A DNA stretch of 64,000 nucleotides from Promethearchaeota archaeon. GTDB lineage: Archaea; Asgardarchaeota; Lokiarchaeia; Sigyniarchaeales; SOKP01. Where the stretch lies: positions 1 to 64,000 of the forward strand of contig JAHPZA010000009.1 in assembly GCA_019058445.1 (NCBI GenBank). The letters are read 5' to 3'. The position numbers and the translations under genes were made by a program. The notes beneath the pieces are model-generated. The model did not search any database and was not told the origin of the DNA. It saw only the letters and a program-made list of their open reading frames with translations. The stretch's first letter is position 1, and each line of letters starts with the position of its first letter. Positions 29,210-39,174 of this stretch are shown one piece after another.

Positions 29210-30079
29210 ATGGTTGATAAAATCGGGATTATTCAAGAGATACAGGATACTTATAAAATTATTGGTAGAACGGAAGAATTAAAAAAGATCATATTGGCCC
29301 ATTCAGTAGGAAAAAATATTTTAATTGAGGGGGAAGTAGGCGTAGGAAAAACCACTCTTGCCAGTGCTGTTTCCTCTTATTTAGATTCTAAATTTTACCG
29401 TATCGATTGTGCAGAAGAGACATTAACCCACAATCTAATAGGATATTTTGATCCTCCGCTGGTAATTGCCAAGGGATATATTGAAGACGCGTATGTCTAC
29501 GGTCCGCTTGCTTCTGCTATGATAAATGGGGGCTGTCTTTTCATAAATGAAATTAACCGAATGCCCGAAAGCACTCAAAATATATTACTCACAGCTTTAG
29601 ATGAAAAAATCTTAGAAATACCTAAATTGAGAACAATTCGAGCTAATGAAAAATTTTTTGTGATTGCTACTTTAAATCCCTCCGCTCACGTAGGAGTAAC
29701 CGTTTTAGGAGAGGCGCTTAAAGATAGATTTATTTGGATCAAACTGGAATATCAAAACCCCGAAGAAGAAATAGAAATAATCAAACAGGAAGTTAATTTT
29801 GATAGCCAAGATGAAAAAATTCCTAAAATTGCTCAAGAAATAATTCAAATAACGAGAAATAATACTTCTATAAGAAGGGGAAGCTCAATTAGAGGTGCAA
29901 TCGATTTGGCCGCGTTAATGACTCAATATGATAACACTAGTAGTACAAAAAATTGGGTTGATGCTGCTGTGATGGCCCTCTATAATAAAATAGAGCTTGA
30001 AGATGGCGTAAATAAATCTAAAAAAGAATTAATTACAGATATAGTTTTAGCTGTATTAAATAAAGCGGATTTTCAGTAA
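29210..30079 (+). CDS. moxR: MoxR-family AAA+ ATPase
   Basis: GEVGVGKT, FINEINR, ATLNP, ALKDRF, SIRG. Confidence 0.92.
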   Translation: MVDKIGIIQEIQDTYKIIGRTEELKKIILAHSVGKNILIEGEVGVGKTTLASAVSSYLDSKFYRIDCAEETLTHNLIGYFDPPLVIAKGYIEDAYVYGPLASAMINGGCLFINEINRMPESTQNILLTALDEKILEIPKLRTIRANEKFFVIATLNPSAHVGVTVLGEALKDRFIWIKLEYQNPEEEIEIIKQEVNFDSQDEKIPKIAQEIIQITRNNTSIRRGSSIRGAIDLAALMTQYDNTSSTKNWVDAAVMALYNKIELEDGVNKSKKELITDIVLAVLNKADFQ

Positions 30080-30132
30080 TCGATGATTTCTCTCTGGAAG
30101 GATCTGAAGAGATTGAGAAAAACCGGTTAAAT

Positions 30133-31194
30133 GTGAGGCTAACTGAACAACTCCCTGATAAAGATATATTAAGGTTAGAAATAATCAGAAAGCAAAAAAA
30201 AAAACCAGATTATTATAAGTATTTAGCTGGCTCTTTAGATTATAAACAAATAAAAGAACTAACTTATTTAGCTATTCAATATAAAAATATTGAAGCTATA
30301 ATGGGTATGCTGAAAGCAAACATCTATGCCGCAACAGACGCTCTTGATTGTGAGGATGGGGTGAGATTTTTTTCTGAAAAAGCTGAAGAATCACCAGAAA
30401 TAATGCCAGAGGTTTATTTCTTTATAAGAAGACCGATCTCATCTAAATATAAGAACATTTTCAGACGATTGGCTCGTCAAAGCATTTTAAAAACCGCCTT
30501 AAAAATAACTAGCAGAGGGCTCAAGGGGATTCAGAAAAAAACAGTACCTTATTATCATATTGGTATGCCCGAATTTAACTTAGATGAGACTATACAACAT
30601 AATCCTCTAAAAATTCATGAAAGAAGTCTCAGCTATAAGGATATATATGGAATAAAAAGACGGAGACAAAAAAGAAAGGTAATACTGATTCTTGATACCA
30701 GCGGAAGCATGTATGGTAAGACTCTGTTGAATGCTGCATTAACCACTTCAGTTTTGGCTTATAACATGGAAAAAGAGGATTATAGCATTGTTTTATTTAA
30801 CTCAACCGCGATGGTTTTAAAGAAAATCGACAATAAGAGAAAAGCTATTGCAAATATTATTGATGAGATTTTAGATTCAGAAGCTGTAGGGTTTACGAAT
30901 ATTCACATTGGTCTTGAAAAAGGATTAAATGAATTAAATAGAATTAAGGAAAATGTGAAAGATCAATTCGGCATTTTAATTACAGATGGGAATTATAATC
31001 GGGGGGAGGACCCAGTTATTTTAGCAAATAAATATCCTAAACTACATGTAATAGGGATGCCCGCAGAAAATGACGCTGAGAGAGGGATTGATACATGCCG
31101 AGATATTGCCAAGGCGGGAAGAGGTAAATTTTATGCGGTATCTAACTATAAGGAAATCCCAAGAGCTTTAATTGAACTTTTATCTCAGACTTAA
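30133..31194 (+). CDS. vWA domain protein (MoxR partner); frame open from 30064
   Basis: MIDAS DTSGSM, GFTNI, ITDG. Confidence 0.9.
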   Translation: MRLTEQLPDKDILRLEIIRKQKKKPDYYKYLAGSLDYKQIKELTYLAIQYKNIEAIMGMLKANIYAATDALDCEDGVRFFSEKAEESPEIMPEVYFFIRRPISSKYKNIFRRLARQSILKTALKITSRGLKGIQKKTVPYYHIGMPEFNLDETIQHNPLKIHERSLSYKDIYGIKRRRQKRKVILILDTSGSMYGKTLLNAALTTSVLAYNMEKEDYSIVLFNSTAMVLKKIDNKRKAIANIIDEILDSEAVGFTNIHIGLEKGLNELNRIKENVKDQFGILITDGNYNRGEDPVILANKYPKLHVIGMPAENDAERGIDTCRDIAKAGRGKFYAVSNYKEIPRALIELLSQT

Positions 31195-31354: not shown

Positions 31355-34000
31355 ATGGGGAATTTTAAAAAAAAAAAAATACAAAGTATTCTATTGATAA
31401 ATTTGCTTCTTATTTCAATAGCTATACTTAATGTAAATAATTATAGTAGTAATATTAAGAGTGAAAAAAATAATGATGGCTTAATTGAATCTGACGATAG
31501 CCTGATAAGTCCAGAAAGTTCGGCAACCGTGTCAGCTACTTATGCAGAAATTGAGATTGATGATTATGGACCTAAAAATCCTGGGGCATATAGTTGGTCA
31601 GAAGCTTTTGCTCAAGGAATTTGTACTGGTTCTGGGACAATATTAGATCCATATGTAATTGACGGACAAGTGATTTCTGATTCTGATGGATTAGGAGGTT
31701 GTATTGAAATAAGAGAATCCAATGCCCATTTTATAATCCAAAATTGTATTTTAACAAACTCGACTCATTTTGGAATAAAATTAAACGAAGCACATAACGG
31801 AACCTTACTCAATAATGAATGTTCTAATAATAACTATGGTATACAAATTTCCAGTTCTAAAAATTGTACGGTTTCAGGAAATACGCTTAATAATGATAAT
31901 TTTGGATTGAGTATAACTGGGAGTTATAATGTAACTGCATCAGGAAACACAATGACTTTATGCGGGTTAACACTAGGGTTTTTTGACTCAAAAGCTCAAA
32001 TGGATACAATGTATATTGATACATCCAATACAGCAAATGGAAAACCGATCTATTATTATAAAGATAAAACAGATTTAAAAAAAAATGATTTCGATAATGC
32101 AGCTCAAGTAATTCTAGTAAATTGTAGTGATTCATTAATAGCAGATATAAATGTTTCATATGCTTCAAGAGGTATTTCACTTTTTCATGACTCTTCTAAT
32201 GTTTCCTTATCAAATATTACTTCAAATTATGGTGCTGACTATGGGTTGTATATAAGGGACTGTAATAATATAACTCTTTATAATAATTCAGTAAGCTATA
32301 ATAAAGGAACAGGGATTTCTTGCAATGGGGATGATTACAATCTAACAAAGAATGTAATCAATTATAATGGTGAGACTGGATTATATCTATCTTCTAAAAA
32401 CGCTAATTTATCTGATAATATATTAGTATACAATAGATATGGAGGTATTCAAATTTCTGGTGAAAATTGTATTCTTAAAAATAATGACATAACTTGGGGT
32501 GGGATAGATATATATGGTAATGAACAAGAATTAGGATCTCATTCAATCGACACATCTAATACGGTAAATTCCAAAAAAATATATTATTATCCTCAACAAA
32601 CTAATTTAAAAAATACTGATTTCACTGACGCAGGTCAAATAATTTTGGTCTCGTGTAACGATTCTTTCATCTCTTATTATAATATTTCTTATGTATCTAA
32701 AGGGATTTCAATATATCATTCTGAAAATATTACAATTTATAATTGTAACATCTCAGAGAATATAGAAAATGGTCTCCACATAGAATATTCGAGTAAATGT
32801 AATTTTAGCGTCAACACTGCTAATAAAATCAATGGAACAGCATTTTATTTTATGTATGAATGTAATTTTAATAAAATCTTAGGAAATACAATCAATAATA
32901 ACTCTGGAGATGGAATCTATTTATTTACGAAATGTAGCAACAATACTATTACTGGAAATACAGTGAATAATACTAGGAATGGAATTACTGTTTATACTAA
33001 TTGCGATGATAACAATATTACTGGAAATGATATTTGTTATACAGGTAAATATACTTCCCTCTCAAAAGCAATACTTCTCAGTGATACTGATAGATGCAAT
33101 GTCTCGGGAAATGTTATTAATAATAACTATTATAGAGGAATTTATATTCAAAATGGTATAAATAACACTATTAGCAACAATGAAATTAAAGAAAATAGTG
33201 ATTTTGGATTATATCTTTATTACGGAGAGGGTCACAATATAACTAAAAATACATTAGTAGGATGCGGCTTAGGAATTAATCCAGATAACACTATATCAAA
33301 AATGACAAGCAATTATATTGATCAGAGTAATACTGTGAATGGAAAAACCTTATACTACTATGCTAATGAAGTGGGATTAGATGCCACTTCGTTTTCTAAT
33401 GCTGGACAGATTTTTCTAATAAATTGCAGCTATGCTACAATAGTAAATGTTAATGTTTCACGTGGATCAACTGGAATTACTTTATATTTCAGTGAAAATA
33501 ATACCATAATGCGCGTTAATGCGACACATAATCAACATTACGGCATATACCTCTATCGAAGTAGCAAGAATAACATTACAGAGAGTATGTTCACTAATAA
33601 CAATAAAATTGGTGTTTACTTAAGCTATATATGTGAAGATAATCAAATATATGCTAATGTATTTATTAATAATACTCTTAATAACGCTGAAGATTATGGT
33701 TCTAATAATAAGTGGAATAATGCAACAATAGGAAATTATTGGGATGATTACACTGGCTGTGATAATAATAATGATGGTATAGGAGAATCCGCATACATAA
33801 TTCCAGGAACTGCGGGTTCTCAAGACGACTTTCCTATAACAAATAGAAAATGCACACCTTCTTCTAGTGGTGGGGACGATGATGATGAGGAAGAACCACA
33901 AGTCGTTCAAATTCCGGGATATGATATTATTTTGATAATTGCCATAATTTGTGTAGCTACATTAATTTTAACTCAAAATAAGTTTAGAATTTATAAATAA
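31355..34000 (+). CDS. Cell-surface parallel beta-helix (NosD/CASH) protein with Loki-CTERM-like tail
   Basis: Signal peptide, GSGTILDPYVI, three N(T)VNGK..YYY repeats, GNYWDDY...DGIG, C-terminal IPGY + TM + basic residues. Confidence 0.88.
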   Translation: MGNFKKKKIQSILLINLLLISIAILNVNNYSSNIKSEKNNDGLIESDDSLISPESSATVSATYAEIEIDDYGPKNPGAYSWSEAFAQGICTGSGTILDPYVIDGQVISDSDGLGGCIEIRESNAHFIIQNCILTNSTHFGIKLNEAHNGTLLNNECSNNNYGIQISSSKNCTVSGNTLNNDNFGLSITGSYNVTASGNTMTLCGLTLGFFDSKAQMDTMYIDTSNTANGKPIYYYKDKTDLKKNDFDNAAQVILVNCSDSLIADINVSYASRGISLFHDSSNVSLSNITSNYGADYGLYIRDCNNITLYNNSVSYNKGTGISCNGDDYNLTKNVINYNGETGLYLSSKNANLSDNILVYNRYGGIQISGENCILKNNDITWGGIDIYGNEQELGSHSIDTSNTVNSKKIYYYPQQTNLKNTDFTDAGQIILVSCNDSFISYYNISYVSKGISIYHSENITIYNCNISENIENGLHIEYSSKCNFSVNTANKINGTAFYFMYECNFNKILGNTINNNSGDGIYLFTKCSNNTITGNTVNNTRNGITVYTNCDDNNITGNDICYTGKYTSLSKAILLSDTDRCNVSGNVINNNYYRGIYIQNGINNTISNNEIKENSDFGLYLYYGEGHNITKNTLVGCGLGINPDNTISKMTSNYIDQSNTVNGKTLYYYANEVGLDATSFSNAGQIFLINCSYATIVNVNVSRGSTGITLYFSENNTIMRVNATHNQHYGIYLYRSSKNNITESMFTNNNKIGVYLSYICEDNQIYANVFINNTLNNAEDYGSNNKWNNATIGNYWDDYTGCDNNNDGIGESAYIIPGTAGSQDDFPITNRKCTPSSSGGDDDDEEEPQVVQIPGYDIILIIAIICVATLILTQNKFRIYK

Positions 34001-34251: not shown

Positions 34252-37200
34252 TTGGTTTTAACGTTGAATAAAAGTAAAAAGCAAAAGATTTTGATGATAC
34301 TGCTTTTTTCTATGATTTTTTTAACCTCGACATTTCAAAGTAATTTATCAAATTATCAAAATAGAGACACTGGCAATTCAATTATTTTTAATGAAGAAAC
34401 AGAAAGTGCGGATGAGCGACCAGATGTAGTAATCTACATAAATGGAAGTTCAGAATCGTGGGAAGATGCAAAAACTGCAGGATGGGTTGATAATGCAGGA
34501 GACGGTAGTTACGGGAATCCTTATGTTATAAAAGACAAAATAATTGATGGTGAAAATTTGAAACATGGTATTTTAATTGAAAATTGGGGCTATTATGATT
34601 TTTACTTTAGAATTGAAAACTGCACATTCATCAATATTGGATCTTCAAATGATCAATTTCCAAAAGCGGGGATTTCAATACATAATGTTGGATTTGATTG
34701 GATGACACAAGGCGGTGGGATTATACAAAATAATGAATTTGATACTAACTCTGACTTAGATAATTATGGAATTTATTTTTTTCACAGTGGAAATTCCACT
34801 TTTTCCAATAATGTTTTTACTGACTTTAAGCATGGTATATATTTTGATAATGGAAGCCGGACTTGTAGTGTTTCGGAGAATCTATTTACTGATAACCAAA
34901 ATGGAATCTTTTTGGATAGATCATGTAACAATATTAACATCACGGAAAATGATTTTTTGGATAACGCTATTTCTGGATTATATGTATTAGATTGCTATGA
35001 TATCCTCATTTATAATAATTATATAGAAGATAATACCAATTTTGGAGTGATTATCTCTGCCTGTGTTGCAGGGTGGAATTGGGGTTATAAGTGGGGGATG
35101 TGGGGCTGGTATTATTTTGATCCAATAAGAGTAATCGATAATACAATTAGTAAAAACAATTATGGAATATTCTTAGACTCAAGTGTTGAACAACAAATTA
35201 AGGGGAATGATATCATTGAAAATAATGAAAAAGGTATTTGGGTATTTCTTTCAGTTTTTAACAATATTACAGATAATACTATAAGCGATAATACAGATAA
35301 AGGAATTGTACTTGATGATAGTAATAATAATAAAATTAACTATAACTTTTTCTTAAGAAATGGAGAACATGCTATTGATGGTAATTCAAAAAATAACTTT
35401 AGTATAAATGGTATTGGTAATTATTGGGATAATTATTCACAAATCTCTGGAGTTGCAGATGATGATGATGATGGGATTGGAGATTTATGGTATAACTTTA
35501 CAGGTGGGCGTGATAAATATCCACTCTATAATGATGGAATATTTGGTGATATTATTGAAATTGATGCAGATGCAACCGGTTATGGAGCACATAATTGGAC
35601 TTGGGCACGAGAAAAGTTCTGGTGCTCTGGTAATGGTCAACCTTGGGATCCATATGTAATTAGTCCCAGTCAAATTTGGGATGGTATTATAGATGGAAAT
35701 GGAAAAACTTGCATTACAATTGAGAATTCAGACTATCAATACGGTGAATCATTTAGAATTGAGGGTTGTACAATTAAAAACTCTGGATCAAGTGGCGCAG
35801 GAATTCAATTAAATAACTCTGGTAATGCGGTAATAAATAACAATAATATCACAAATAACGGAATTGGAATATCACTTAACTGGGTTTTTTTCACTAATTT
35901 TACAGATAATACTATCATTAATTCTCTAAATAAAGGCATTTATCTGACTAACCATTCTAATATGAATGATTTTATTTGCAACACGATTTCCAGTAGTCAA
36001 AATGGAACTTATTTAGAAAAGGATAGTAAAGACAATGAGTTCATTTTAAATATTTTCGAGAATAATGCTAAATATGGGGCTGTCGTAGCCGATAATATTA
36101 GCATTAATAATGTTTTTTATGAAAATACATTTCGAGGAACGACAACAACTAACGAATATGCTCTTGACAATACTAATACAACAATGTGGTATAAAGACGA
36201 GAGAGGAAATTCTTGGGGAGATTATGTTGCGAAAACTGGTGGTTCAGATCTAGATGATGATGGTATTGGAAATGTTAAATATGATATTATTGGAAAGGGC
36301 AACAATAAGGATATATTCCCTCTTTACGACGACGGACTTAATGGTCAACCCTTATACATTAACGGAGCTGCTTCTGGTGTTGATGCGCATAATTGGACTT
36401 GGGCAAGTAAGCGACTTTATATTTCAGGGAATGGTACACAACTGAATCCATATGTTATAAAAGATGTGACTATTAGTGGTCTTGATTCAGAAAGCGCTAT
36501 TATCATTGAAAACTCTGATTGGACACTTAATACCTATTTTAGGATTGAAAACTGTACTTTAACGGATATTGGTGGCTCTGGACGCTCAGGAATTAAATTG
36601 TATAATGTCACGAACGGTGAAATAATCGATAATGAGTTTTCAACAGATAATGTAGGGAATTATGGGATTCATACAGAACGGTGTAGTTATATTTCAATTG
36701 AAATGAATACCATCTCAAGTAACGAACAGTTTGATATTGGGATTTATCTAGATAAAGATAGTCATCATATCAATATTGTAGAAAATGAAATTAATGATAA
36801 TCTCTGGGGTATATATCTCCACAATATGACTAATTATAACAACATTACAATTAATACTATAGAAAATAACGATTTCTCTGGTATATATATGAGTAATTGC
36901 TCAAATAACAACGTTATGTACAATTTCATTAATTATAATGGAAATGGTACAAAATTAGACAATGGTGGCTATTTACATAAAATTTTTGGAAACATCTTTA
37001 AAGATAACGTTGAATATGGATTAATCATAAATCACTCTGCTGTTGAAACGACTACAATTTATAATAATACTTTTTCGGGAAATTTAGCTAATGCTAGAGA
37101 CGATGGTCGCTGGAATGAATGGAATACTACATCTATAGGAAATACTTGGAAAGATTATAAAGATAATGTAGAGGGAAGAGGATATGTAGCTCAAGACCTC

Positions 37201-39174
37201 GATGATGATGGGATTGGTGATGTAAATTATACTATTTCTGGGTCAGCTAATTCGACAGATGGCAAACCTATTTATGACGATGGATTTGATGGAGATCGAA
37301 TTTACATAATTGGTAATGCTCAGCCAAGTTACTTATGGGACGATATTTGGGTTATGTCTTGGAATGAAGCTACTAGTAAAGTCTGGTGCTCAGGGAGTGG
37401 AACATCTAACGACCCATATGTTATTAAAGATATAGAGATTGATGCTAAAGGCGATAATAGCTCCATTTATATAATGCAGTCTCAAAATGATTATTTTAGG
37501 ATTGAAAATTGTAATATAACCAATTCAGCTGAAGCGAATGAAACTGCGGGGATATATTTAACTAATGTAAATTATGGCGAGATAAGAAATAATAATTGTT
37601 CGTTAAATGGTTACGCGGGAATACAGTTGGATAATTGTAATAATATTACGATAATCGACAATGATATTGAAAATAACGGAGAATTTGGGATATTCATAAC
37701 TAACTGGTGTGGTACAATTGATATAGAGAATAATAGACTAAAGCAAAACGGTCTTGGCAACGAAGGGTCGGGAATACACTTGGAAAATGGATACTTTAAT
37801 AATATCATCTATAATAATACTTTAAATGGAGATAATGTAGGGATATCCCTGAAATATCTCTGGTATATGACTCTTATTTCAGAAAATATTATTAAATCTG
37901 ATTCCCATGGATTAGCTATAATCGATCATTGTGATAAACTCCGAATAATCGGCAATACTATCTATGAATGTGGAGAAGATGGAATACACTATGGGTGGAA
38001 ATCGGGTCAGCCTTGCTTTAATAGCACTATTAACGGAAATAACATACATGATAATACTAATTATGGTATTCTTTTGGATTTCCTTGAGGACAGTGACATT
38101 TCAGGAAACATTTTAAATAGTAATTTAAAGGGAGTTGTAGTTAACGCTAAATGTAGATTAAATACGTTCAATAATAATCTTATTTTAAATAATTTTGGAG
38201 AAGGAATGTTGTTCAAGATGGGAACAGGTGGTAATCTCATATATAATAATAATTTCTCTGGAAACTTAATTCACGCTGCGGATTTTGGGCTTGATCCTGT
38301 ACAGTCAAATCTTTGGTATAAAGGAAGTAAACAGTGTGGTAATTATTGGGACGATTATGGCGATTTTGGAGGAAAAGACATGGACGACGATGGAATTGGA
38401 GATGATCCCGTAGATTATATGATTCCAGGAGGCTTAGGAATAAGCGAAGACAAATATCCTATTTGGTGGGATGAACCAGGTATTAAAGCTAAAAAACCCC
38501 TTGATAATGAGGAATTTCTGCCACATCAACCTCCAAGTTATGAGATTAATATCACCGAGGGAAGAGGATGCTTTTTCTGGTATGAAATAGATGGAACTTC
38601 CTCTACACCTATGATATTATTAGGAAATATACATGAAATAATAACGGGTACTGTAAGTTTAAGTTTATGGGATCCATTAACAGATGGGACTTATGCTATC
38701 ACATTTTACGTAAATGACACTCAAGGATATGAAAATTCTCAAGTTGTTACGATCACAAAATTAAATGCTACTACAACTACAACTCCTTCTAGCGATAATG
38801 GCGGCGGTGATGGGACTTCTGATGATTCAACCTCTGAAGACGAAGAAGGGTTACCATGGTATATACAAGCAGCAATGACGGGTGCTGTTAGTGCGAGTGT
38901 TGGTTTAATTATTAAACAGTCATATAGTTCAGCCAAAAAGAGGAGGATTATTTTAGAAAAGATACACGAAAATTTTGCGAGAGTTGATAATCTTGAGAAA
39001 TTCTTAAAAGATAAATTAACTTACGAGGATTGGGAAAAAATTCAAGAAGCATGGCAGAAATATCAAAATGATGAGATAACGGAAAGACAAATGATTAAGG
39101 AGAGTAAAAAGACCTTAGGAAAAAGATTTACTGAGTTGTTTATTCCACATAAAAAATCGAGAAGAAGAACTTAA
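34252..39174 (+). CDS. Large single-pass surface glycoprotein with four beta-helix modules
   Basis: Four G.G...PYVI...GN.W..Y...DDDGIG units, Ig-like segment, S/T/D linker, TM helix, cytoplasmic tail. Confidence 0.88.
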   Translation: MVLTLNKSKKQKILMILLFSMIFLTSTFQSNLSNYQNRDTGNSIIFNEETESADERPDVVIYINGSSESWEDAKTAGWVDNAGDGSYGNPYVIKDKIIDGENLKHGILIENWGYYDFYFRIENCTFINIGSSNDQFPKAGISIHNVGFDWMTQGGGIIQNNEFDTNSDLDNYGIYFFHSGNSTFSNNVFTDFKHGIYFDNGSRTCSVSENLFTDNQNGIFLDRSCNNINITENDFLDNAISGLYVLDCYDILIYNNYIEDNTNFGVIISACVAGWNWGYKWGMWGWYYFDPIRVIDNTISKNNYGIFLDSSVEQQIKGNDIIENNEKGIWVFLSVFNNITDNTISDNTDKGIVLDDSNNNKINYNFFLRNGEHAIDGNSKNNFSINGIGNYWDNYSQISGVADDDDDGIGDLWYNFTGGRDKYPLYNDGIFGDIIEIDADATGYGAHNWTWAREKFWCSGNGQPWDPYVISPSQIWDGIIDGNGKTCITIENSDYQYGESFRIEGCTIKNSGSSGAGIQLNNSGNAVINNNNITNNGIGISLNWVFFTNFTDNTIINSLNKGIYLTNHSNMNDFICNTISSSQNGTYLEKDSKDNEFILNIFENNAKYGAVVADNISINNVFYENTFRGTTTTNEYALDNTNTTMWYKDERGNSWGDYVAKTGGSDLDDDGIGNVKYDIIGKGNNKDIFPLYDDGLNGQPLYINGAASGVDAHNWTWASKRLYISGNGTQLNPYVIKDVTISGLDSESAIIIENSDWTLNTYFRIENCTLTDIGGSGRSGIKLYNVTNGEIIDNEFSTDNVGNYGIHTERCSYISIEMNTISSNEQFDIGIYLDKDSHHINIVENEINDNLWGIYLHNMTNYNNITINTIENNDFSGIYMSNCSNNNVMYNFINYNGNGTKLDNGGYLHKIFGNIFKDNVEYGLIINHSAVETTTIYNNTFSGNLANARDDGRWNEWNTTSIGNTWKDYKDNVEGRGYVAQDLDDDGIGDVNYTISGSANSTDGKPIYDDGFDGDRIYIIGNAQPSYLWDDIWVMSWNEATSKVWCSGSGTSNDPYVIKDIEIDAKGDNSSIYIMQSQNDYFRIENCNITNSAEANETAGIYLTNVNYGEIRNNNCSLNGYAGIQLDNCNNITIIDNDIENNGEFGIFITNWCGTIDIENNRLKQNGLGNEGSGIHLENGYFNNIIYNNTLNGDNVGISLKYLWYMTLISENIIKSDSHGLAIIDHCDKLRIIGNTIYECGEDGIHYGWKSGQPCFNSTINGNNIHDNTNYGILLDFLEDSDISGNILNSNLKGVVVNAKCRLNTFNNNLILNNFGEGMLFKMGTGGNLIYNNNFSGNLIHAADFGLDPVQSNLWYKGSKQCGNYWDDYGDFGGKDMDDDGIGDDPVDYMIPGGLGISEDKYPIWWDEPGIKAKKPLDNEEFLPHQPPSYEINITEGRGCFFWYEIDGTSSTPMILLGNIHEIITGTVSLSLWDPLTDGTYAITFYVNDTQGYENSQVVTITKLNATTTTTPSSDNGGGDGTSDDSTSEDEEGLPWYIQAAMTGAVSASVGLIIKQSYSSAKKRRIILEKIHENFARVDNLEKFLKDKLTYEDWEKIQEAWQKYQNDEITERQMIKESKKTLGKRFTELFIPHKKSRRRT

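Follow-up and report, generated by a model that had tools for sequence, protein, structure and literature searches.

A probable programmed -1 frameshift joins a MoxR-type ATPase to a vWA protein in Asgard archaea

The nearest known case to the gene pair described here is the frameshifted chlD gene (fs-chlD) of magnesium and cobalt chelatases (Antonov et al. 2013, PMC3711429; Kuznetsov et al. 2022, PMC9227772), the slip of which was validated in E. coli at 10-63% (PMC3711429; PMC9227772). Our pair lies on the forward strand of a 64,000-nucleotide (nt) stretch of DNA from a Promethearchaeota archaeon (positions 1 to 64,000 of contig JAHPZA010000009.1, assembly GCA_019058445.1; this whole stretch is called the window below) and consists of two overlapping open reading frames (ORFs), a MoxR-type AAA+ ATPase and a von Willebrand factor A (vWA) protein. 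We propose that the two very probably form one recoded gene, in which a -1 slip yields both a short ATPase and an ATPase-vWA fusion. The likeness to fs-chlD is broad: two adjacent ORFs of about 1 kb are annotated separately, a -1 frameshift gives (here, would give) AAA+ and AAA+-linker-vWA subunits from one message, other taxa have the two parts fused in frame, and both archaea and bacteria have members. There are also clear differences. The AAA+ protein is of the MoxR type (AAA_5/AAA_3) and not of the ChlI type, the site is a short U-run next to the stop codon (N_NNU_UUU) whereas the tested chlD cassettes are poly-A (7-11 A), and the MoxR-vWA pair is Asgard-wide, without a link to chelatase pathways. 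The chlD precedent, which had been invoked by a first-pass annotation of the window made from its letters alone, is real, but the pair itself is not chlD. A ChlD, BchD or cobaltochelatase identity was rejected on the scores of TIGR02031 (25.3 bits, cut-off 499.6) and TIGR02442 (31.3 and 22.1 bits, cut-off 779.5), and the Pfam Mg_chelatase model covers only residues 14-58 of the ATPase.

In dnaX (tau/gamma) and in the phage tail chaperones G/GT, a -1 slip fixes the ratio of short and long products that share their N-terminal part and belong to one complex. The proposed MoxR-vWA gene would have in common with them the programmed -1 slip and the two products; the proteins differ, and in E. coli dnaX (its frameshift is described in PMC3711429) the slip truncates the protein whereas here it would extend it. 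By function, sequence and structural models suggest that the pair belongs with the MoxR-vWA remodelling pairs such as NorQ-NorD. In NorQ-NorD (PMC13036017), CbbQ-CbbO, RavA-ViaA and CoxD-CoxE, a MoxR-class hexameric ATPase is likewise associated with a partner carrying a vWA domain with a metal-ion-dependent adhesion site (MIDAS). Those partners, however, are separate polypeptides with their own starts, whereas the vWA part described here appears to be mainly or only a covalent extension of the ATPase. A literature search found no paper on a MoxR-vWA frameshift, nor on any programmed frameshift, in Asgard archaea.

The features on which the proposal rests are the following.

29210-30079, forward strand: ORF of the MoxR-type AAA+ ATPase (AAA_5/AAA_3), the 0-frame product, 289 amino acids (aa) and 32.4 kDa
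30061-30063, forward strand: TAA of the -1 frame, read from the sequence, the upstream limit for a frame change
30067-30073, forward strand: slippery heptamer G_GAU_UUU in X_XXY_YYZ phase, with its conserved core U_UUU at 30070-30073
30073-31194, forward strand: the -1 reading after the slip, 373 codons and a stop
30077-30079, forward strand: TAA, the 0-frame stop of MoxR, one codon past the slippery UUU

The ATPase was readily recognized, with Pfam scores of 75.7 bits for AAA_5 (cut-off 22) and 65.4 bits for AAA_3 (cut-off 27), an intact Walker A motif (GEVGVGKT, residues 41-48) and matches to MoxR (2r44), NorQ and CbbQ among PDB sequences. Codon by codon, its 3' end reads AAA (30062-64), GCG (30065-67), GAT (30068-70), TTT (30071-73), CAG (30074-76) and TAA (30077-79), which confirms that the heptamer seen by the first-pass annotation is in phase. 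The frame of the vWA protein is the -1 frame, as also stated there: past the TAA that limits it upstream, it is open from 30064 until the stop at 31192-94. Ribosomes translating MoxR would thus reach GAU UUU one codon short of the stop, and a fraction of them would slip one base back on U_UUU, either by a tandem slip on G_GAU_UUU or by a single P-site slip, with tRNA-Phe re-pairing with UUU in the -1 frame. The slipped ribosomes would go on with UCA GUA AUC and produce a predicted protein of 661 aa and 75 kDa, made of MoxR residues 1-288 and the -1 reading (...NKADF/SVIDDFS..., the slash marking the junction); from N- to C-terminus, MoxR would be followed by some 23 disordered residues as a linker, by a helical domain and by the vWA/MIDAS domain. 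Its predicted trans-frame tryptic peptide in this genome is ADFSVIDDFSLEGSEEIEK. Ribosomes that do not slip would end at UAA and release the free 289-aa MoxR. The likely purpose would be a fixed ratio of plain and vWA-adaptor-tethered ATPase subunits in one AAA+ ring, the slip rate setting how many ring subunits carry the adaptor.

Taken in a single sequence, the heptamer is real but has no significance alone. U_UUY occurs within the last two codons of 150 of the 2996 ORFs of at least 200 codons in this 4.6-Mb genome (5%), and only three of these 150 then have a -1 frame open for at least 100 codons; the other two (on contigs C1 and C6) were dismissed as ordinary adjacent genes with an evident ATG. 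The weight of the case comes instead from the comparison with other genomes. Orthologous loci came from three sources: genomes related to that of the window, a sample spanning the phylum (vWA ortholog in 184 of 301 genomes) and a scan of one genome per species. The vWA frame was -1 and overlapped MoxR in 81/85 and 68/78 loci, that is in 149/163, with 116 unique junctions. These junctions come from Loki-, Heimdall-, Thor-, Hod-, Hermod-, Kari-, Sif- and Borrarchaeal metagenome-assembled genomes (MAGs), from Lokiarchaeum ossiferum and from one member of the Hadarchaeota; Ca. Harpocratesius and two Ca. Heimdallarchaeum genomes are also among the named records, and three closed genomes (CP104013.1, CP084166.1 and CP084167.1) have the -1 arrangement.

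The heptamer and the -1 overlap, the conservation of which the first-pass annotation had proposed as a check, are both kept across the Asgard phylum. The heptamer has an A-site YYY run in every one of the 116 unique junctions and is fully canonical (XXXYYYZ) in 54. The sites are GGATTTT (44), TTTTTTC (22), AAATTTT (15), AGATTTT (11), TTTTTTA (6), GGGTTTT (4) and others, so that GGAUUUU, named before as the slippery site, is indeed present in phase in the window but only U_UUU is conserved: the first three bases vary (G_GAU, A_GAU, A_AAU, C_CAU, G_GGU, U_UUU). U-rich A-site heptamers of this kind (XXXUUUN) resemble the sites favoured by eukaryotic ribosomes. In 49 junctions the MoxR stop comes immediately after the UUU codon and in 65 it comes one codon further on (together 114/116), and in two loci the -1 frame opens just 1 nt before the UUU codon. 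Because the permitted shift windows of all loci intersect only at U_UUU, the frame change is pinned to this point. The base before UUU is a T in 80 of 81 loci, for an expectation of 0.72 from codon usage, and GC-richer lineages retain TTT or GGT at this position although they seldom use them otherwise (for 0-18% of Phe and 14-17% of Gly, respectively). In Lokiarchaeum ossiferum the site is A_AAU_UUU (CP104013.1, around 2,860,000) and the trans-frame sequence would read ...VLENF/SVEAEDPEQSPSK.

A sequencing error in the homopolymer of a truly fused gene, or a decaying pseudogene, could in principle mimic such an arrangement, homopolymers being error-prone and in-frame fusions being found in other lineages. 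This explanation is effectively refuted because the same -1 arrangement recurs in 116 junctions under purifying selection, from independent assemblies that include closed genomes; run lengths and flanks differ between them, and the selection bears on both halves. The homopolymer also invites a second explanation, in which RNA polymerase stutters on the T-run and adds one U, so that some mRNAs encode the fusion in frame. A run of T4 to T7 is indeed present at the site in all lineages, and the same two products arise by transcriptional slippage in some dnaX and chlD-type genes (PMC3711429). Yet polymerase slippage is highly unlikely here, because the runs are mostly T4-T6 whereas slippage at the sites cited in PMC3711429 requires over 7 A or over 8 T; moreover, the A-site/P-site phasing and the spaced downstream hairpin are marks of ribosomal and not of polymerase slippage.

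We next considered the start of the vWA protein and what precedes it, in the following parts of the -1 reading.

30073-30141, forward strand: linker, the first 23 residues after the slip (SVIDDFSLEGSEEIEKNRLNVRL), conserved as protein, predicted disordered, with low synonymous change
30133-30135, forward strand: GTG, the first canonical start of the vWA frame, not conserved and without a Shine-Dalgarno sequence
30157-30510, forward strand: helical N-terminal domain of the vWA protein (model residues 29-146)
30640-31191, forward strand: vWA (Rossmann-like) domain, with the MIDAS motif DTSGS at 30694-30708

The vWA protein matches Pfam VWA at 36.8 bits, and the D, S, G and S of its MIDAS motif are invariant across 22 diverse orthologs. 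In the AlphaFold model (mean predicted local distance difference test score, pLDDT, 85.8), residues 1-23 are disordered (pLDDT below 50) and are followed by the helical domain and the vWA fold. The model matches BatB, NorD and the Rea1 MIDAS domain, with NorD of the NorQD complex among the best structural matches; it resembles generic vWA domains, and Rea1-MIDAS comes only at rank 24.

Two ordinary genes would be another alternative. The vWA protein would have its own start, GTG 30133 in the window and different or non-canonical codons in other genomes, possibly through coupled termination and reinitiation; MoxR would have a conserved C-terminal Phe, and the U-run and the frame overlap would simply follow from it. 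The GTG lies exactly at the start of the predicted fold, as would suit such a start, and MoxR-vWA systems normally consist of two proteins, as in NorQ/NorD (PMC13036017). No GGAGG-like motif is found ahead of GTG 30133, however, in agreement with the first-pass annotation, and the codon is replaced by GTA, GTT or ATT in most members of the family. The first ATG, GTG or TTG of the vWA frame lies 3 to 83 codons past the site depending on the ortholog, and public gene calls of close vWA orthologs (at least 69% identical) have 31 different lengths, from 296 to 367 aa. No start codon was conserved at any position among the vWA orthologs compared, and no near-cognate start was common to the families in the few codons following the site. 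The peptide ahead of every candidate start is itself conserved. In the window the -1 frame encodes SGFSVIDDFSLEGSEEIEKNRLNV before the GTG, and the corresponding 20 codons are conserved as (S/L)(I/V)IDDFS..EE.E.KRL.VR, with a ratio of nonsynonymous to synonymous change (pN/pS) of 0.475, which denotes purifying selection. Over the first seven codons past the site, synonymous change (pS) is 0.197, a fourfold drop from the 0.75-0.82 measured elsewhere in the two genes, and such a low value is the signature of an RNA signal overlapping the coding sequence. Nor does selection on a C-terminal Phe fit the synonymous T before UUU, which is retained against codon bias. We therefore regard independent initiation as improbable for the family as a whole. 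The earlier scheme had named variable frame relationships with conserved vWA starts as the outcome that would speak against the fusion; the loci show a -1 relation in 149 of 163 cases and no conserved start, which supports a MoxR-vWA fusion made by -1 frameshifting. Most orthologs lack a usable vWA start, and in most lineages the vWA part may therefore be made mainly or only as the fusion. The minority share that had been assigned to it is a guess.

Natural variants of the pair bear on the same question. One Heimdall clade encodes vWA in the +1 frame, and all its loci but L157 share a conserved ATG (Met-Pro..., ATG-CCN) 7-10 nt past the MoxR stop.

Loci of the +1 Heimdall clade (12, some of them duplicates): L051-L053, L082, L127, L132, L135, L138, L147, L148, L157, L164

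Separate genes thus do exist in the family, as two-gene organization would predict, and the MoxR of this clade still ends ..KFFR.. with TTTTTT; the Phe is also retained in the Njord fusions described below. A real vWA start codon is found in no other clade, and no other clade has departed from the -1 relation. The first-pass annotation had suggested looking for natural in-frame fusions, and among longer homologs 81 proteins were recovered that have MoxR and vWA in a single ORF (521-719 aa); they come from Njordarchaeales, Bathyarchaeia, Nitrososphaerales and others. They are 33-53% identical to MoxR, and two that were checked on both halves showed about 50% identity over MoxR and about 30% over vWA. 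On both sides of the junction the fusions align in the same order as the predicted trans-frame product. Such colinear forms occur in Njord archaea, in Thermoproteota and in Actinomycetota, where two loci are in frame. In the Njordarchaeales fusion P0019 (L167:301-2433), the junction reads AAC TTT TTT CGT in frame, and the linker is much longer, by about 50 extra residues in the alignment. In a quick maximum-likelihood tree of the concatenated halves, rooted on bacterial fusions, the in-frame forms branch off first, as a grade, and a single clade unites all frameshifted forms (97 by the Shimodaira-Hasegawa-like approximate likelihood ratio test, SH-aLRT). Nested within this clade are the split genes (a clade with support 100) and the Njord fusions. 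Three state changes therefore suffice, although the direction of change is tentative because of the root and of the long outgroup branches.

RNA structure downstream of the site was then compared. The window contains two candidate elements.

30087-30120, forward strand: hairpin TTTCTC (30087-92)/GAGAAA (30115-20), the minimum free energy (MFE) fold, -6.6 kcal/mol, z +1.15
30077-30115, forward strand: candidate inverted kink-turn-like element, UAAUC-GAU-GA-(22 nt)-GA-GAUUG

The hairpin is the one pointed out by the first-pass annotation. It is indeed the MFE fold, but its stability is not significant, and as a conserved element of the window's own family (f1) it was rejected, the RNAalifold consensus being weak (-4.8 kcal/mol) with almost no covariation. 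Across the collection the picture is different: in 94% of 81 loci, the 50 nt after the heptamer fold better than the median window taken along the two genes (mean z -1.36), and outside f1 hairpins mostly begin 5-10 nt after the site, with stems that differ by lineage (GGAGG/CCUCC, GGGAAUUC/GAAUUCCC, UCCCGAG/CUCGGGA, GGAGAU/AUCUCC and others). The pattern GA-stem-loop-stem-NNN-GA, at offsets of 5, 8 or 11 nt, was found in 56 of 116 junctions, and in 34/73 of those outside f1; in control windows its rate is 0.9%. Its stems are of 28 distinct sequences, with compensating changes at all four stem positions examined, and its bulge is GAU in 27/34; the downstream element of many lineages thus appears to fit the kink-turn sequence consensus. 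One such arrangement was seen in the Hadarchaeota MAG (locus L163, CAYWSC010000003.1), where G_GAU_UUC CAG UGA is followed by GA-GGGGG-loop-CCCCC-GAU-GA; the presence of the same cassette in this lineage suggests horizontal transfer of the whole recoded gene.

The window itself does not have the usual arrangement, and only the inverted one fits, loosely. Its C stem would pair UAAUC (30077-81) with GAUUG (30111-15), with GAU (30082-84) as the bulge, GA (30085-86) opposite GA (30109-10) and an inner hairpin at 30087-30108. The inverted pattern is found in most loci of f1; it shows no covariation there, and 10-11 of 26 sequences have changes that disrupt the C stem. Rfam gave nothing significant over 29950-30300, the best relevant match being an archaeal C/D-box sRNA at 11.4 bits for a gathering threshold of 50.

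Several points weigh against the recoded gene and have to be set beside the evidence for it. Few -1 frameshifts have been shown in archaea: fucA1 of Saccharolobus, and chlD of methanococci, the latter tested only in E. coli. In the window's heptamer, A-site re-pairing is perfect but P-site re-pairing is imperfect and non-canonical (GAU onto GGA), and the 52 nt downstream are no more stable than their dinucleotide shuffles (z +1.15). The locus counts overstate independence because the loci are phylogenetically related. Finally, a GTG does lie 20 codons downstream, at the edge of the folded domain, which leaves room for some independent initiation in this genome. On the other side, comparison of the loci shows a U-run fixed in position and phase throughout the phylum, a -1 vWA ORF without a conserved start, a linker that bears the marks of translation, and depressed pS just after the site. 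All together, these results make a recoded MoxR-vWA gene the very probable reading.

The architecture of the predicted fusion recalls that of eukaryotic midasin (Rea1). In both, an AAA_5-type ring is (here, would be) covalently joined to one MIDAS domain through a flexible linker that has acidic stretches; midasin has six AAA modules in one chain, and the likeness is architectural only. MoxR is regarded as the prokaryotic precursor of the AAA modules of midasin and dynein (PMC3495828). Midasin also gave the lowest E-value for the window's MoxR (29210-30079) among PDB sequences (1.8e-38). Any special closeness was rejected, this value being a sum over several AAA modules: single midasin modules score at most 37.7 bits against MoxR, for 60.8 bits with bacterial MoxR 2r44 and 53.7 bits with NorQ.

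Several observations in and around the locus have no direct bearing on the site. The vWA ORF contains an A11 run (window 30194-30204) that encodes the KKK of ..RKQKKKP..; among family members, 17 loci have no run of at least 7 A, 25 have runs of 7-9, and only the window has 11. A second shift site at this place was rejected: the lysines are conserved as protein while the length of the A-run varies, and a frame shifted here would meet a stop within 5-7 codons. Almost all related genomes also encode another, distant vWA family, 22-27% identical to this one, as ORFs of about 830-870 aa (for example G000:C6:1193340-1194131, minus strand). Directly downstream of the pair lie an 881-aa NosD/right-handed beta-helix protein (window 31355-34000) and a 1640-aa ORF (34252-39174). 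No conserved neighbour hinting at a substrate was found, flanking genes being common to only one or two of the closest relatives; since the downstream neighbourhood is shared with closest relatives only, it gives no functional link to MoxR-vWA.

A further proposal, which we hold to be possible but doubtful, is that the frameshift is protein-controlled in many Asgard lineages: a kink-turn clamped by the ribosomal protein L7Ae or a paralog would act on the slip, and the slip rate would set how many MoxR subunits bear the MIDAS adaptor, a design that is hard-wired in midasin. If true, this would be the first cellular -1 frameshift stimulated by a kink-turn/L7Ae roadblock, and the AAA_5 ring with its flexible linker and one MIDAS would be the design that midasin hard-wired into a single chain. 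For the Asgard archaea themselves, a recoded MoxR-vWA gene would correct the annotation of hundreds of 'VWA domain-containing protein' genes, the starts of which are now called at 31 places, and it predicts an unannotated fusion protein of 75 kDa. It would also offer a testable case of stoichiometry control in MoxR-vWA machines, with fused, split and frameshifted states found in related lineages.

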